Below, piece after piece: positions 35,858 to 42,110 of a DNA stretch of 64,000 nt (position 1 is the stretch's first letter; each line of letters starts with the position of its first letter). Where the stretch lies: the NCBI GenBank assembly GCA_965248435.1, contig OZ252100.1, positions 4,000,001-4,064,000 on the forward strand. Reading direction: 5' to 3'. A model generated the notes under the pieces. The model saw only the letters and a list, made by a program, of their open reading frames with translations. It was not told where the DNA came from and made no database searches. Source of the DNA: Candidatus Latescibacterota bacterium (lineage in GTDB: Bacteria > Latescibacterota > UBA2968 > GCA-2709665). The position numbers and the translations under genes are program-made.

Positions 35858-37966
35858 TTACTTGACCTCGAATACTGCCTTGCCGACCCCAACATTGCCG
35901 AGCGCGTCTGCGCCACGAACCACCAGGGTATATTCACCCGGATCGAGGTGATCGAGCGTAAACTGAAGCATCTCGCTTCGCGAATCGAATATCTGGTCCG
36001 CCGGGAAGACCACCTTCCAGGTTCCGGAATTGAGAGAATAGCTGGCCTCCCGGATCGGGCTGATTGCGTCTTCAACCGCCGTCTCCACGGAGACGAGGCC
36101 TGGACCGGCCTGTCGGACCGATGATAGACGCACATGAGGAGGCGTATGGTCGATGTCGAACGGCTCACTCACCTTTTCAGAGGAGAGGGCCTGGGTTTCC
36201 GGATTGCTCAATCGATCGGAGGCGACCACTCTTAGCTGCATTGTGCCTTCGGGAGCGGATTCGACCTTCCAGAGATAGTTGGGCGAGGTGAGGTCTTTCT
36301 CCAGCAGCTTCCAATCTTTTTCCTCACGACCCCGGAAGTAGAGGTCGTAAATCAACTGGTCGCTGTTCACGTCGGCGGCAGACCAGGAGATCTTCCATAC
36401 GCCTTTCTCCTGGTCCTGGGGCTGGGGGCGGGCCTGGCGTTTTTCACCGTCCGACCCTGCGTTCCCGGAGGGACTGTTTCGACGTGCGGGGGATGTGATC
36501 TGAAGATCCAGGATCTGAGGCTCAAGGTTTTCCTGGAGGCCGGCCATCGTGACTTCCCGCAGTTTGGGCGTAGCACTTCCTGTCTTTGAGGTCATCACCG
36601 CTCGATACTGCAGGAATCTGGCCGGAGGGCTCAGGATCTGGCCGCCCTTCGAGGGTTCAGACCAGGGACTCCACGTATCGTCTGGGACCTCGCCGTTGCC
36701 CGACCGGGTCTGGAACGAGATGGAAGTGCCCTCCGTCTCCTCGGCTTTCCAGGCCAACTTCCCCCACTTGGACACGATTGTGAAATCTCTGGGTTCGGAG
36801 GTCAGCGTGCCCTTTTTCGAGTAGGATCGCTCCAACCGATGGACCGTCCCGGCCCCTGCGGCCCCGATCCAAAACCGGGCGTCTCGGGAAGGGCAAATTG
36901 CCCACGGTTGGAGATCCTCCATTCGAAGGATCAGGGTAGAGGTGCCATCATTTTTCACACGGTAGACAGATCCAGGGTCTCCGGTGAGGGCGGTAAGCTC
37001 ACCGCCTGCGTCAACGTGCAGCGACAGGAGGATCGGCTCTGGGGTCTGCCACAGTTTGATTGCTGCGCCAGATGGACGTATGGCATAAATCACAGAGGCT
37101 TCGCTGGCCGCCTCCTTCCCAGGTTGGGGAGGGGTCTTAGGCGGGGCCGCGTTTCCTCCGCTGAGCCTCGAACTTCCCGTCATCGCTCCGGCATAGAGCA
37201 TCCCGTCGGGTCCGAATGCCAGGGCGTGGACTTCCTTTTGAGATGCGTCGAAGAGGACTTGCACTTTACCGCTCTGGTCGACCTTGTAAACGAGCCCATT
37301 CTGATCAGTACCGGCGTAAAGGTTTCCATTCGGCGCCTGAATCAGCGAAACGATGTTGGGATCCGGGCTCTTGTAAATCTCTTTCGGTTTACCCTTCGAA
37401 GAGATCCGAAGGATGCGCCCGTTACTGCCGCCCGTGGCGGCGTAGAGATCGCCTCCGGGCTGCGGGACGAGCGCCCAGACGTGACTGTCGCCGGTCCGAC
37501 AAAAGGTGATCGGGTTCTTGCCGGGATCGATCCGATAGATGTTTCCGTCGGGTGAAGAGCCCGCGTAGAGGGTCCCATTCGGTCCGACCGCGAGGCTAAA
37601 GATTGCCACTTCAGGGGAATCAAACAGGAGTTCAGATACTCCCTTTCCTTCATCGTAGGCAAAGATCTTACCGCTGTTCCCCGTAGCGATGTAGAGCCGC
37701 CCCTTCTTACCCTCTGCCAGTGCCCATACGAATTCCTCGTCCGTATCCACAACCTGTTTGAGGCTGGGGCCGAGGGTTACGACCCCATCGCGGGTGATGG
37801 AGACATCCTCGGCCTCGCCCTTGATAAAGGACGCGCGGCTGTCCTCGCGCCAGATCGTCGGCACGACGGCATCTGCCGGTAGCTGAAGAAGACCCAGCAG
37901 ACATACGAACAGGGGCCAGGCCTGGCGAGCTTTAGTTCTTGTCTCGACTGGGCCCGGCCTTCTCAT
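35858..37966 (-). CDS. Secreted beta-propeller plus Ig/FN3-like domain protein
   Basis: Signal peptide, repeated G.LYAGT..G.IY blades, DTWSPWS, C-terminal DALGN beta-sandwich; start uncertain (37999, 37981 or 37966). Confidence 0.75.
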   Translation of the reverse strand: MRRPGPVETRTKARQAWPLFVCLLGLLQLPADAVVPTIWREDSRASFIKGEAEDVSITRDGVVTLGPSLKQVVDTDEEFVWALAEGKKGRLYIATGNSGKIFAYDEGKGVSELLFDSPEVAIFSLAVGPNGTLYAGSSPDGNIYRIDPGKNPITFCRTGDSHVWALVPQPGGDLYAATGGSNGRILRISSKGKPKEIYKSPDPNIVSLIQAPNGNLYAGTDQNGLVYKVDQSGKVQVLFDASQKEVHALAFGPDGMLYAGAMTGSSRLSGGNAAPPKTPPQPGKEAASEASVIYAIRPSGAAIKLWQTPEPILLSLHVDAGGELTALTGDPGSVYRVKNDGTSTLILRMEDLQPWAICPSRDARFWIGAAGAGTVHRLERSYSKKGTLTSEPRDFTIVSKWGKLAWKAEETEGTSISFQTRSGNGEVPDDTWSPWSEPSKGGQILSPPARFLQYRAVMTSKTGSATPKLREVTMAGLQENLEPQILDLQITSPARRNSPSGNAGSDGEKRQARPQPQDQEKGVWKISWSAADVNSDQLIYDLYFRGREEKDWKLLEKDLTSPNYLWKVESAPEGTMQLRVVASDRLSNPETQALSSEKVSEPFDIDHTPPHVRLSSVRQAGPGLVSVETAVEDAISPIREASYSLNSGTWKVVFPADQIFDSRSEMLQFTLDHLDPGEYTLVVRGADALGNVGVGKAVFEVK

Positions 37967-39896
37967 CAAATACGACACCATCTTTCTCCCTATCGACATA
38001 GATCAGTGCGGTCTGACTGCCAGAGAGTACATACTCTGTGTTTACGTGTTTTCGATACAGCACGGTTTGCCTGACGCGTTTGACATCTCCGGAATGCCCG
38101 GAGAAACGAAGTGCAGACAGGACCGAGGGCGGAAGGGAGGCAACTTCTCTCCCTTCGACTGTGACCCCCCGTTTGGAGGACAGGAGATCGATGATCAGTT
38201 CATCGTTCTTGTCCTCCTCGCCGATGAGGCGGATGAGGTGTTCGAAGTCCCGCGGCGCGTGTTCTCCCGGGGCACGTTTGGTCTCCAAAATGCGATGCGT
38301 TCGCGCGCTCGCGGCCCTCAGGGTCAATCTTCCACCCCGCGCTTCCGCAGGGATCGTCAGCTCGGTTTCGATGGTTTCGGGTGTGCCGAGGTAAGGATGG
38401 AGCACAACCGTAAGATGCACCTTGTCCCCCGGCTGGAAGCGGGCCTTCCTGAGGCGAATGGACTCGACGTGAGCGGCACGGATCGTTTCTTCGACTTCGA
38501 GATCGAAAACCACTTCCTCCAGGCGTACGGGTTCGAAGGGGTTTCGGATCAGGCGGCCCAGTTGAGAGGTCACACCCAGGACAGCCTCACCCAGGGCTCT
38601 TGGACCTGAAAAGATGTTGCTGAGTTCCAGGGGAGGATGTTCCGCCAGATGAATGCGCGATGTCGCTCGTATGGTGGCCTGCCCGAGGAGTTTTTCGGAT
38701 GAGATCAGGGCGTTTGTGACTGCCGCCCGCATCAGGAGGGGTGTGAAGTCTCGGTTTCGCAGAATCTCCATCTGAAAAGACTTGGTGCCCGCCGGAGAAC
38801 GAACCTCCACGCGCGTTGGAATCATTTCCGCCTCTTGGCCGACGATTCCAGCTATCCCTGGCGCCCTGTCCTGGAGGATGACGCCCATCGGCTTGGCGGC
38901 TGCTCCCAGTTTGAACGACAGCATCTGACTGGGAAGCACCTCGTGGATGAAGGCCGACGTCATCGGCATGGAGGTATTGCCCCCGAACAGCATCGGGTGC
39001 CCGAACCCGATAACACGGTCGCCCTCCCGGTAGGTCAGCGTACCGATGCCGGTGACACTCCAGTCGCCACGGACCAACTGGACGCCGAGCGCGGCCCCAG
39101 GCTCGAAGGGACCCGAGGCCAGTGTGGAGTCGGCTGTTCCGCCGCCCTGGACAGGAAGCAGTCCCATTCGGAGGAATTCCTGGCGCAGGTCAGAGACGAC
39201 CCGGGGCGAAAATCCGGACATGGCCAGCGGGGTGGCAACAGGTTTAAGACCGCCCGGTTCAGGCAGCGATAGATCCGTCAGATCTGGATTCGAATCCTCT
39301 TCCGAAATCATCCATGTATCCGGGCCTCCCACGGCGCTTGTCGCATCCGATGGGCGTTCGAGCACCGCTTTCATTTCAGCAATCGGCGTGATGCCGGCGA
39401 TCGGCTCCTTCGAAAAGGCGCCGAAGCTGTAGGCGACGGCCCCGATCAACTTGCCGTCGATGTAGACCGGACTGCCACTCATTCCGGCGATGACGCCTGT
39501 GTGTTCCAGGGGACCCCCGGAGAGTCGGGCCAGGATAATGTCCCTGCCTGGGCCGAAGACATTGTGCAGGACGCCGAGGACCTCCGCTCCGAAAGTGTCG
39601 ATTCGGGAACCCTGGAAGACGGTTCGCCCCACGCCGACCAATCCACGCCGAAGCTGGTCGACCGGCATGTGTGCATCCGGTTCCAGATCGGATGCCTGAG
39701 CAGGGGACACGAGGAGCCCCAGGCAAAGGAGGATCACTGAGATTCTGTGGATCGTGGATCGTGGATCGTGGATCGTCGTTCGATTTCGGATTGCGGATTG
39801 CGGATTGCGGATTGAAAGGCATTGCTCGCAGCAGAGCCGTTTGGAAAACCCGTGAATCGTCATATTCATCCCGGAGACCGGATTCGTTGCTGGCAT
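37932..39896 (-). CDS. SpoIVB-like peptidase S55 family protein, secreted
   Basis: AGMSGSPVYIDGKLIGAV and GIGTLTY...GFGHP motifs; start uncertain because repeats lie in the 5' end. Confidence 0.85.
   Translation of the reverse strand: MPATNPVSGMNMTIHGFSKRLCCEQCLSIRNPQSAIRNRTTIHDPRSTIHRISVILLCLGLLVSPAQASDLEPDAHMPVDQLRRGLVGVGRTVFQGSRIDTFGAEVLGVLHNVFGPGRDIILARLSGGPLEHTGVIAGMSGSPVYIDGKLIGAVAYSFGAFSKEPIAGITPIAEMKAVLERPSDATSAVGGPDTWMISEEDSNPDLTDLSLPEPGGLKPVATPLAMSGFSPRVVSDLRQEFLRMGLLPVQGGGTADSTLASGPFEPGAALGVQLVRGDWSVTGIGTLTYREGDRVIGFGHPMLFGGNTSMPMTSAFIHEVLPSQMLSFKLGAAAKPMGVILQDRAPGIAGIVGQEAEMIPTRVEVRSPAGTKSFQMEILRNRDFTPLLMRAAVTNALISSEKLLGQATIRATSRIHLAEHPPLELSNIFSGPRALGEAVLGVTSQLGRLIRNPFEPVRLEEVVFDLEVEETIRAAHVESIRLRKARFQPGDKVHLTVVLHPYLGTPETIETELTIPAEARGGRLTLRAASARTHRILETKRAPGEHAPRDFEHLIRLIGEEDKNDELIIDLLSSKRGVTVEGREVASLPPSVLSALRFSGHSGDVKRVRQTVLYRKHVNTEYVLSGSQTALIYVDREKDGVVFDEKAGPSRDKN
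39746..39813. repeat. Heptamer tandem repeats (GTGGATC x4, TTGCGGA x3) inside the 5' end of the S55 gene
   Basis: Direct reading; translates as IRNPQSAIRN...IHDPRSTIH. Confidence 0.85.
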
Positions 39897-40033: not shown

Positions 40034-40504
40034 ATGCGGATCACCCTGCTCACTGTCGGCCGGTGCCGGACCGCCTACCTGGAAGAGGGTGCTGCCGACT
40101 ATGCGAGGCGAATCGGGAGATATGCCACACTGGAGCAGGTGGTCGTGAAGGAGGAACGTGGGCAGAAGGGCAGGCTGAGCGAGGATATCACTCGGAAGGA
40201 GGGAACGCGTCTGCTGGATGCCGTTCATGGAAACGCGTTCCTTGTCGCGCTGGATCGCTCGGGCCAGGCATGCACCTCGGATGATCTGGCGGCGCGGATC
40301 TCTGAGCTGGGTTTAGCCGGACGGAGTCGGATGGCGTTTGTGATCGGAGGCGCGTTCGGCCTTGCCCAGGAGGTCTTGAAGCGCGCGGATTGGCGTCTCT
40401 CAATTTCATCCATGACGTATACGCACGAGATGACCCGATTGGTGATCCTCGAACAAATCTACCGGGCATTCACTATTCTGAGGGGGGAGCCTTACCACAA
40501 ATAG
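40034..40504 (+). CDS. rlmH: 23S rRNA (pseudouridine1915-N3)-methyltransferase
   Basis: FVIGGAFG, TYTHEMTRLVILEQIYRAFTILRGEPYHK. Confidence 0.95.
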   Translation: MRITLLTVGRCRTAYLEEGAADYARRIGRYATLEQVVVKEERGQKGRLSEDITRKEGTRLLDAVHGNAFLVALDRSGQACTSDDLAARISELGLAGRSRMAFVIGGAFGLAQEVLKRADWRLSISSMTYTHEMTRLVILEQIYRAFTILRGEPYHK

Positions 40505-40558
40505 GTTTTCTACGCCGGAGGCGAAACTTCCTGCCCGGTACTGAGTTCAATCCGAAGC

Positions 40559-40901
40559 AAAAATAGCCCGGGGGAGAGGACGTCGAACAGCCGGGGAGAG
40601 ATGATTCCTTAGCCAGGAATCCGGCTGCTCGGGCCTGTCAGCCCCCGGGCTTTGCCACGGGCGGAATCAAACAGAGGAAACCACGACCTGAAGACTCTGG
40701 TGGGAAAGAAGATTTATGAAACCGGCACTTCTGTCGATTTGGCCTCCAAAAGGGCCAGACCAACGATCCAGCGGGGAAGAGAAACGGAGCAACTGAGGGA
40801 AGGGAGATTCCAGGCGCCACGGTCGATCGCCTGACTCATCCCAGGGGTCGGGATGATTGTCAGAGATACTGACACGGCGCAACGAGGGGATCCTCGCAAG
40901 C
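40559..40901 (-). ncRNA. Candidate structured non-coding RNA (about 340 nt), family not recognised
   Basis: Own sigma-70 promoter, four adjacent 5' hairpins, 87-nt terminal stem-loop followed by a U tract, no credible ORF. Confidence 0.55.
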
Positions 40902-40907
40902 AGGATT

Positions 40908-40936
40908 AAGATAAGCCACTGTTTTTGTTGAGTCAA
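40908..40936 (-). promoter_or_regulatory. Sigma-70 promoter, minus strand
   Basis: TTGACT (40936-40931), 17 bp, TATCTT (40913-40908). Confidence 0.65.
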
Positions 40937-41021
40937 GAGGAAAACCCGTGGATCGTCTCAGTTTTAGCCGGAGCCCGGATTCAGGTTTATATTATCTTCG
41001 GATATCTATCATATAAAGGAG

Positions 41022-42110
41022 TTGGCCCCACAAACTCTGCAACACGAGGCTGAATTGGTGGACCACAAGCTGAGAGTCGGGATTGTTGGCGTCGGCGGCA
41101 TCGCCCGCACACATCTCCCCGGATGGGAAGCTTCAGAGCACGCTGAAGTGGTGTCGGGGTGCGATATCGACGTGTCTGTGATCAACGCGTGGGGAAAACG
41201 GCACGAGATCGCAAAGGTGACGACCGACCCGGACGCCCTTTTCAGCGACTCGAAGGTCGATCTGATCGATATCTGCACGCCGAACGTATCCCACGCCGAT
41301 CTCGTGATCGCAGCGCTGGAAGCTGGAAAACACGTGCTTTGCGAGAAGCCTCTGGCACCGACGCCGGAGGCCATCCGGAGGATCATGGATGCAGAGGAGA
41401 GATCCGCGGGGAAGCTGATGACGGCTCAGCATTATCGATTCGAGGGGACGTCGAAGGCCCTGAAAACGGAGATCGAAACGGGTGTCCTGGGTGACATCTA
41501 CCACGCAAGGAGCTGGCTGCTGCGTCGCGCGTCCATGATCACGAGGCCTGGTTTCACGCAGAAGGAACTGAGCGGCGGGGGCGCCTGCATCGACATCGGG
41601 GTGCACGTGCTGGACCTTACGCTCTGGTTTATGGGCTTTCCGAAGGCGACCTGCGTGACCGGTGTCGCACGGTCCGAACTTTCCAAGCAGGAGGGTGCTT
41701 TCCTCAACAATAAGGTTGTGATCCCTCCGGGAATGGACGTGGAAGAGTTCGCGGCCGCCTTCGTCCGGTTCGAGAACGGCGCCACCCTGATCCTGGAGGT
41801 CAGCTGGCTGCTCCACCACGACGTGCCAGGCGAAGACCCTCAGATCTGGCTCTACGGGAGCCGGGGGGGATGCCACTGGCCGCGATGCGAGATGTATGAA
41901 TCCAACACCGCTGCCCGGCAACATTACAACCGTAGCCTCAAATTGACGAATGAGAAGCTGGAGGCGCACGCCCTGGAGTGCGTTGAATTCGCGCAGGCCA
42001 TCGTGGACGGCGCGCCGTCTCCTGTTCCTGCATCGCAGTCGCTTCAGGTTTTGAAGATCCTCGACGGGGTCTACCGAAGCCAGGAGAGTGGCCATGAGGT
42101 GAAGATCTAA
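41022..42110 (+). CDS. Gfo/Idh/MocA family oxidoreductase
   Basis: VGIVGVGGIA, ICTPN..H, HVLCEKP, GGACIDIGVH; alternative GTG start at 41058. Confidence 0.93.
   Translation: MAPQTLQHEAELVDHKLRVGIVGVGGIARTHLPGWEASEHAEVVSGCDIDVSVINAWGKRHEIAKVTTDPDALFSDSKVDLIDICTPNVSHADLVIAALEAGKHVLCEKPLAPTPEAIRRIMDAEERSAGKLMTAQHYRFEGTSKALKTEIETGVLGDIYHARSWLLRRASMITRPGFTQKELSGGGACIDIGVHVLDLTLWFMGFPKATCVTGVARSELSKQEGAFLNNKVVIPPGMDVEEFAAAFVRFENGATLILEVSWLLHHDVPGEDPQIWLYGSRGGCHWPRCEMYESNTAARQHYNRSLKLTNEKLEAHALECVEFAQAIVDGAPSPVPASQSLQVLKILDGVYRSQESGHEVKI

Follow-up and report, generated by a model that had tools for sequence, protein, structure and literature searches.

The closest described systems to the element reported here are small regulatory RNAs (sRNAs) that act through runs of C. 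The 6C sRNA of Actinobacteria is reported to bind messenger RNAs (mRNAs) through C-rich loops and to do so independently of a chaperone (PMC6486639), and an unpaired UCCC motif of RsaE, from Firmicutes, is reported to block formation of the initiation complex (PMC2790875). Here we describe a candidate noncoding RNA (ncRNA) gene in a 64,000-nucleotide (nt) stretch of the genome of a Candidatus Latescibacterota bacterium (contig OZ252100.1, positions 4,000,001 to 4,064,000; hereafter the window, whose own numbering we use). The gene lies on the minus strand within the 517-nt gap between rlmH (40034-40504, plus strand) and a gene for a Gfo/Idh-like oxidoreductase (41022-42110, plus strand). We are highly confident that this ncRNA gene is real and has a transcript of its own. 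An earlier interpretation made from the letters of the window, here called the sequence-only reading, had proposed an undescribed, separately transcribed and structured RNA on this strand, and this proposal is now supported by the lack of any Rfam match, by the joint conservation of promoter and hairpin, and by covariation. As to function, the best explanation overall, which we hold tentatively, is a single-copy gene of about 340 nt, running from 40559 to about 40901, whose RNA would act in trans through C-rich motifs.

The feature exceeds chance by its conservation among related sequences; single-sequence statistics do not show this. The minus strand folds at -133.7 kcal/mol (z = -3.29), a stability reached by none of 100 shuffles. 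The promoter scan returned one site at the locus against 0.5 +/- 0.8 in shuffles, which alone is not significant, and the terminator scan of the region, under a rule that accepts loops of 3-8 bases only, returned no site. Because of these last two outcomes, the case rests on relatives. A DNA search of 60 related genomes plus the window's own matched 47 of the 61, and it matched two blocks only, namely the promoter and, some 220-330 nt further downstream, a terminal hairpin. The window's genome has one copy of the locus. A covariance model of the 3' hairpin, built from 29 sequences and termed R1, matches the window's genome, 18/18 genomes of one family (f1) and 28/30 of a second (f2), the two being sister families of one order of uncultured marine bacteria. 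These 47 of 49 genomes carry one copy each, and both f2 genomes that R1 missed are fragmented assemblies, 88-91% complete. Meanwhile, R1 matched none of 102 genomes from twelve other families of the phylum (151 genomes scanned in all), which makes it a sharp marker for the order. When 185,579 species genomes were scanned for an exact pattern, 41 loci were found, mostly labelled Latescibacterota or Latescibacteria, with a few labelled Gemmatimonadota or Gemmatimonadetes, 'bacterium' or 'uncultured bacterium', and a metagenome scan added 15 loci. As far as sampled, the RNA thus appears confined to the two sister families of Candidatus Latescibacterota.

The promoter is kept with equal strictness. 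The pattern TTGAC-N5-AAAAACA-NN-GGCTTAT, with at most two mismatches, occurs in the window's genome, in 21/21 f1 and in 30/31 f2 genomes, so that the TTGACT-17-TATCTT promoter proposed from the window is both present there (40936-40908) and preserved, spacer included, in 52 of 53 genomes. Outside the two families the pattern was seen in 4/115 genomes, every time at two mismatches, which is about the rate of a reversed-pattern control. It precedes the 3' domain in all 43 distinct full-length RNAs, in all five divergent genera that were fetched separately, and in 12 of the 15 metagenome loci, the remaining three being too short upstream. The spacer (AAAAACA..GGCTTAT) is nearly invariant in 48/48 full-length members derived from genomes and in 12/15 metagenome loci. 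Judged from sequence, this is a sigma-70-type promoter conserved as a whole, spacer and all. With the start set 7 nt past the -10 box, inferred lengths are 227-357 nt among relatives and about 340 nt in the window. Promoter and terminal hairpin are therefore kept together across two families, and the conservation in relatives that would be expected of a genuine RNA gene is present.

Every element that the sequence-only reading had named lies on the minus strand at its place, including the 87-nt terminal stem that ends in AUUUUU (40651-40559). One grouping has changed: the stems of all four proposed 5' hairpins are present, but the second to fourth merge into one composite hairpin, both in the minimum-energy fold, where the tip reads CAUCCC-GACCCCU-GGGAUG, and in relatives. 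The features are as follows.

40936-40931, minus strand: -35 box TTGACT (direct sequence reading and promoter scan).
40930-40908, minus strand: 17-nt spacer CAACAAAAACAGUGGCU and -10 box TATCTT, the latter at 40913-40908 (sequence, promoter scan and relatives).
40899-40903, minus strand: predicted transcription start, about 40901 (placed by distance from the -10 box).
40896-40883, minus strand: 5' hairpin H1, CGAGG AUCC CCUCG (sequence and fold).
40880-40811, minus strand: long composite hairpin H2 (minimum-energy fold and relatives).
40874-40858, minus strand: UGUCAG/CUGACA hairpin (sequence).
40855-40837, minus strand: CAUCCC/GGGAUG stem, the tip of H2, with loop GACCCCU at 40849-40843 (sequence and fold).
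40833-40811, minus strand: CAGGCG/CGCCUG hairpin (sequence).
40810-40766, minus strand: C/U-rich linker, UCUCCCUUCCCUC ... UUCUCUUCCCC (sequence).
40757-40740, minus strand: small middle hairpin UGGCC/GGCCA (sequence and fold).
40739-40654, minus strand: second C/U-rich stretch, weakly structured, with UUCUUUCCCACC at 40710-40699 and UUUCCUCUG at 40680-40672 (sequence and fold).
40653-40565, minus strand: conserved 3' domain (covariance model R1 and covariation).
40651-40565, minus strand: 87-nt terminal stem, AGCCCGGGGG/CCCCCGGGCU, CGAGCAGCCGG/CCGGCUGUUCG and AUUCCU/AGGAAU (sequence).
40651-40642 with 40574-40565, minus strand: basal stem of the 3' domain (sequence and model).
40631-40621 with 40594-40584, minus strand: middle stem of the 3' domain, including the G-U pair G40628-U40587 (sequence and model).
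40620-40616 with 40608-40604, minus strand: apical stem AUUCC/GGAAU (sequence and model).
40615-40609, minus strand: variable apical loop (relatives).
40603-40595, minus strand: invariant 9-nt bulge CAUCUCUCC (relatives).
40564-40559, minus strand: terminator-like AUUUUU tail after the basal stem (sequence).
40034-40504, plus strand: rlmH, a convergent and conserved neighbour outside the RNA (open reading frame list).

The terminal hairpin carries compensatory base changes, in agreement with the claim of a structured RNA. In a MAFFT alignment of 27 distinct sequences, made independently of the model, 91.3% of cells pair, against at most 53.5% when the partners are slid, and changes on both sides occur at 10 of 29 pairs. 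The model-fitted alignment (63 matches, 52 of them distinct), which leans towards the structure of R1, yields 91.8% paired cells against 33.5-51.7% for slid partners. There, both sides have changed in compensatory fashion at 17 of the 29 pairs, and none of 500 shuffles reached any of five measures. The basal stem offers clear examples, with GGG/CCC replaced by AAA/UUU in one genus and a C-G pair by U-A in another. Likewise, two divergent genera have CAGCCAG/CUGGCUG (GCAGCCAG/CUGGCUGU) in place of CAGCCGG/CCGGCUG (GCAGCCGG/CCGGCUGU). Meanwhile, the apical helix GAUUC/GAAUC, the 9-nt bulge on its 3' side and the flanking GCAGCC/GGCUGU are essentially invariant, and the apical loop ranges from about 5 to about 25 nt among relatives. 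The conservation of this domain exceeds the needs of a terminator, and for that reason we consider that it may also bind a protein.

The covarying domain also bears on the strand. Across its alignment, G-U cells number 54 and A-C cells 13, eight of the latter at one pair with a register problem. The sequence-only reading had argued for the minus strand from an imperfect pair of the middle stem, which in the window is G-U on that strand only (G40628-U40587), and the argument holds among relatives, where 47 of 52 distinct sequences have G-U at the equivalent position. On sequence grounds, the conserved G-U pair and the promoter together fix the minus strand. A functional plus strand, be it as a CsrB-like GGA-rich RNA, as the rlmH 3' untranslated region or as leader to the oxidoreductase gene, is extremely improbable. 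A fold is predicted for this strand as well (z = -2.02; 3 of 100 shuffles are equally stable), the minus-strand RNA has the more stable whole-RNA fold in just 20 of 48 members, and GGA occurs 14 times on the plus strand of the region and 7 times on the minus. The sequence-only reading, which counted about 15, had taken this for GGA richness. Composition alone, however, gives 10.5 +/- 2.6, and since 132 of 1000 shuffles contain at least 14, GGA is not enriched. In addition, the CsrA family (PF02599) had no match in the window's genome, which is 97.5% complete, the conserved promoter faces the minus strand, and the G-U pair kept in most relatives would, if read on the plus strand, become an A-C mismatch. 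On the oxidoreductase side, where the promoter lies, relatives differ in the neighbouring gene. The CsrB-like alternative is accordingly set aside.

Still less credible is that the region encodes a small protein. Open reading frames of 60-89 codons do exist on both strands, but none of the four local ones tested has a Pfam match (0 for 4/4), some members have no open stretch longer than 27 codons on the sense strand, the length differences that spread the RNAs over 227-357 nt include non-triplet insertions and deletions, and the conserved parts change by compensatory base pairs. The view that the short reading frames here look spurious is thus supported.

Comparison with described RNAs yielded no relative. 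At gathering score, the 4227 models of Rfam 15 gave no match in the whole window. When the 701 nt around the site (40400-41100) were searched at E values up to 10, four chance-level matches of 13.8-17 bits appeared, all to eukaryotic models of long noncoding, small nucleolar or micro RNAs with cut-offs of 40-98 bits. The RsaE and 6C models were absent from the matches at this permissive level. The sequence-only reading saw no hallmarks of transfer-messenger RNA, RNase P RNA or signal recognition particle RNA here, and all three are indeed found elsewhere in the genome, above cut-off, at C1:3129673, C1:1134632 and C1:771668-771937, respectively. The RNA is therefore undescribed in Rfam 15 and is not a member of any known family, so its novelty has survived the covariance-model check. 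Judged by titles, the literature that we searched holds no description of noncoding RNAs of Latescibacterota.

At its 3' end, the RNA faces rlmH. The convergent rlmH gene lies within 150 nt of the RNA 3' end in 44 of 48 loci, and two genera have the rlmH stop codon just 0-8 nt away from the modelled end. Of 48 members, 33 have a U-run of at least four within 12 nt after the stem, and many members have an A-run before the hairpin and a U-run after it. In many genomes, both convergent transcripts probably end at this hairpin. For the proposed terminator of the RNA the observations are mixed: the hairpin is present in every member, and the basal stem and the U-run can be read in the window, but the terminator scan was empty and the U-run is not general among relatives. 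We consider it very improbable that the hairpin is chiefly a bidirectional terminator, or an antisense element shared with rlmH through 3' overlap, preceded by a transcript that has no function in trans. The convergence, the short distances and the flanking A- and U-runs are what such an element would show. On the other hand, the invariant loop-proximal sequence and the bulge are needless for termination, so that shared termination leaves the sequence invariance of the hairpin unexplained. It also leaves unexplained the conserved promoter 227-357 nt upstream and the CCCC hairpins in between. Moreover, the four loci that lack an adjoining rlmH keep the hairpin and run straight into the peptidase gene that otherwise lies beyond rlmH. 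Since the 3' hairpin abuts the convergent rlmH stop, a cis-antisense effect on rlmH is possible.

The peptidase gene is a relative of a 654-amino-acid open reading frame of the window (37932-39896, minus strand), which looks S55-peptidase-like by eye and has odd N-terminal repeats (IHDPRSTIH, SAIRN). It lies beyond rlmH on the same strand as the RNA, and in most of the loci with enough sequence its relatives are found downstream of the RNA, again on the same strand. Probably the transcripts of the RNA and of rlmH either overlap or have a bidirectional terminator in common (40505-40653 and the equivalent segment in relatives).

Transcription of the RNA is weakly indicated by metatranscriptome contigs. 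Four libraries from four studies supplied contigs, 90-99% alike, that cover 40635-40894, 40628-40881, 40568-40718 and 40576-40722. The contig ends at 40894 and 40881 fall inside the predicted RNA, and none of the contigs extends into the promoter. Neither the uncovered parts of the stretch nor the low depth speak for or against transcription.

Between promoter and 3' domain lies the body of the RNA, its 5' two thirds, which differs in sequence and length among genera and keeps a common plan: a 5' hairpin, a long hairpin with a CCCC-loop tip, and C/U-rich single-stranded stretches with CUCCCC or UUCCCC. The first element is a hairpin in relatives too, with the loop UCCCCC in f2. In the H2 loop, conservation of the CCCC columns is complete or reaches at least 90% across 48 sequences, and the core pairs of H2 form in 40, 44 and 43 of 46 distinct lettered sequences, with some compensatory changes. 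In these counts the two sequences of the window's genus, which the MAFFT alignment misplaced, figure as broken or gapped cells; the H2 of that genus is the CAUCCC/GGGAUG hairpin. The linker region (40810-40766) contains single-stranded CUCCCC motifs in relatives, the stretch 40739-40654 varies in length and sequence, and a small hairpin is often present before the 3' domain.

In the 48 bodies CCCC occurs 210 times, where dinucleotide shuffles predict 137, and GGGG only 14 times. Each body holds 1-10 CCCC, most of them unpaired by prediction and many in hairpin loops; the predicted probability of being unpaired is 0.74 for CCCC and 0.47 for the whole body. In f2, three CCCC sites are conserved. 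The body is thus C-rich and G-poor, with conserved CCCC loops that are predicted to be unpaired. Conserved C-rich motifs, unpaired by prediction, are what distinguishes base-pairing sRNAs of the RsaE and 6C class, and the RNA has them.

Based on these findings, we postulate the following mode of action. The sigma-70-type promoter would drive a minus-strand RNA of about 340 nt, which would act in trans through the exposed CCCC loops of its 5' hairpins and the CUCCCC and UUCCCC of its single-stranded linkers. Pairing of these motifs with Shine-Dalgarno-like, G-rich sites on mRNAs would block the initiation of translation and, as with the C-rich loops of RsaE and 6C, would need no Hfq. As for the 3' domain, it would end and stabilise the transcript and probably also offer a platform to a protein. 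The 3' end of the 16S rRNA in the window's genome carries CCUCC, and Shine-Dalgarno sites are therefore expected to be G-rich. A gene for Hfq was not found in this genome (97.5% complete). Base pairing through the C-rich motifs, taken as a mechanism in its own right, is possible and remains a tentative proposal.

Several observations weigh against this explanation. The most conserved part of the RNA is the 3' domain and not the C-rich loops, which the pairing model leaves unexplained. The link to Shine-Dalgarno sites is loose, because CCCC pairs with GGGG and not with the canonical GGAGG. A quick search of the window's genome for complements of the invariant bulge gave 13 and 54 near matches, none of them convincing, and the one other exact match of 13 nt lies inside what looks by eye like an antitoxin-like coding frame. 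The RNA is presumably two to three times as long as RsaE or 6C. The U-run is missing in 15 of 48 members, the closest, same-genus relative among them. The metatranscriptome contigs have a depth of 2-5 and are unstranded, the flanking genes are similarly covered, and carry-over of DNA is possible. The tally of whole-RNA folding energies given above, in which the sense strand comes out ahead in fewer than half of the members, counts in the same direction. Lastly, the CCCC hairpins that the RNA has in common with the leader at a second locus, described below, fit the titration of a protein at least as well as they fit pairing.

This second locus has the same promoter. The window's genome carries the further copy, TTGACACAAAAAAAACAAAGGCTTATCTT, on the minus strand of C1 at about 543,520-543,790, followed by some 230 nt of non-coding, C/U-rich leader with CCCC hairpins and then by a gene that looks, by eye, to encode a secreted NHL-repeat protein. 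Sites that fit the promoter pattern at 0-1 mismatch occur in at least nine other genomes, and one genus has a conserved variant at two mismatches. Downstream DNA was read at five such sites, and at each a C-rich leader precedes an open reading frame, which looks secreted by eye in four of the five. The leaders at second-locus sites are 200-260 nt long and have similar CCCC hairpins. When second-locus DNA was compared with relatives, the promoter alone matched; one of the leaders has a stretch that matches the H2 tip of another genus. This locus may represent a sibling of the RNA or else a leader that is controlled in the same way. In one f2 genome (G029), TTGACTTTACAAATACACGGACTTAT occurs five times, suggesting a repeated or mobile element with a similar promoter-like sequence.

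The main rival to the pairing explanation is a decoy or sponge, in which the CCCC loops would bind an RNA-binding protein that also binds C-rich mRNA leaders, by the logic of CsrB and CsrA with another motif and another protein. We regard it as rather unlikely, and as the alternative to be taken most seriously. The number of CCCC per body and their predicted exposure in loops are as a sponge would have them, the second locus in the window's genome and at least five other genomes combines a near-identical promoter with a CCCC-hairpin leader before a secreted-protein gene, and the invariant 3' domain suggests contact with a protein. Yet neither CsrA nor Hfq was found, and the motifs held in common with the second locus could simply come from duplication or common descent of the promoter together with the 5' module. 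The 3-6 motifs are also few next to those of classical sponges.

A role as a housekeeping ribonucleoprotein or as a global regulator, with the invariant 3' domain for its core, is quite improbable. In one form, the RNA would mimic the tail of 16S rRNA: its hairpin followed by AUCUCUCC resembles the 16S hairpin with its CCUCC tail and would engage ribosome-related factors or Shine-Dalgarno sites. This likeness, however, is a short, imperfect motif noticed by eye. The near-universal, single-copy presence of the RNA in the order, the invariance of its apical part and bulge above a helix that covaries, and the retention of the hairpin even where no U-run follows would all suit such a role. So would its linkage to rlmH, a gene for a 23S rRNA methyltransferase, in 44/48 loci, although this may reflect mere shared termination. 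The other form is a 6S-like role, for which it might speak that the Rfam 6S model (RF00013) had no match in the window's genome at E values up to 1. That absence carries no information, because the model reaches its cut-off in 0/151 genomes of the phylum. Nor does the RNA form a 6S-like rod: its ends do not pair with each other, and neither an end-to-end closing stem nor a central bubble is seen in the minimum-energy and centroid folds or in the 21-member f2 consensus fold, which have local hairpins and a self-contained 3' hairpin instead, and 6S RNA was rejected as an identity.

Our preferred explanation remains the trans-acting RNA with C-rich pairing motifs. A bolder version, which we think unlikely, would make the RNA the hub of a new post-transcriptional system. 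An abundant, order-wide RNA with C-rich loops and an invariant 3' module, whose bulge resembles an anti-Shine-Dalgarno sequence, would either titrate a C-motif protein that also controls the C-rich leaders of secreted-protein genes, or mimic the 16S 3' end to capture Shine-Dalgarno sites or ribosome factors, and the second locus would belong to the same circuit.

These findings have implications for a phylum of which, to our knowledge, there is no cultured member. New lineage-specific sRNAs are unsurprising in themselves. What we describe is a well-supported, lineage-defining ncRNA whose promoter and C-rich loops are conserved and whose 3' domain covaries, and because these parts are conserved, it is ready for a family model and for tracing in marine metagenomes and metatranscriptomes. 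Loops that work in the manner of RsaE and 6C would extend the record of chaperone-free G-C pairing to one more, distant phylum. Should the 3' domain or the second locus with its shared promoter point to a protein partner, a new regulatory circuit would be at hand, and such a partner, or a role related to the ribosome, would raise the importance of the RNA.

How, then, does the RNA compare with known systems? From RsaE/RoxS it differs in phylum, in the lack of a match to the Rfam model, in a length of 227-357 nt against a much shorter RsaE, and in its invariant 90-nt 3' domain with the 9-nt bulge. From 6C it likewise differs in phylum and in the lack of an Rfam match, and also in its 5' hairpins, long C/U-rich linkers and large 3' domain, 6C being much shorter. 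Like RsaE, it would be trans-encoded, with its own promoter and a terminator-like hairpin, and it has conserved unpaired C-rich motifs (UCCC there, UCCCC or CUCCCC here), for which pairing with G-rich ribosome-binding regions is proposed; RsaE is reported to act without Hfq (PMC2790875), whose gene was not found here. With 6C it shares hairpin loops made of C runs and conservation across a large clade, and for 6C multiple G-C pairings with mRNAs are reported to suffice without a chaperone (PMC6486639).

The sponges CsrB and RsmZ also repeat a short motif in the hairpin loops of a medium-sized ncRNA, and here the motif possibly recurs in mRNA leaders, if the second locus is one; the motif is CCCC, however, and not GGA, which is unenriched, and the CsrA gene was not found. 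Like 6S RNA, the RNA is widely conserved, single-copy and probably abundant, with a strong conserved promoter, and no other 6S candidate was detected in the window's genome. Unlike 6S RNA, it matches no 6S model, has no closing stem or bubble, and is longer than the 187-position Rfam model. Taken together, the RNA most resembles the C-rich-loop regulatory RNAs, and has in addition an unusual 3' module that is invariant and a promoter common to a second locus.

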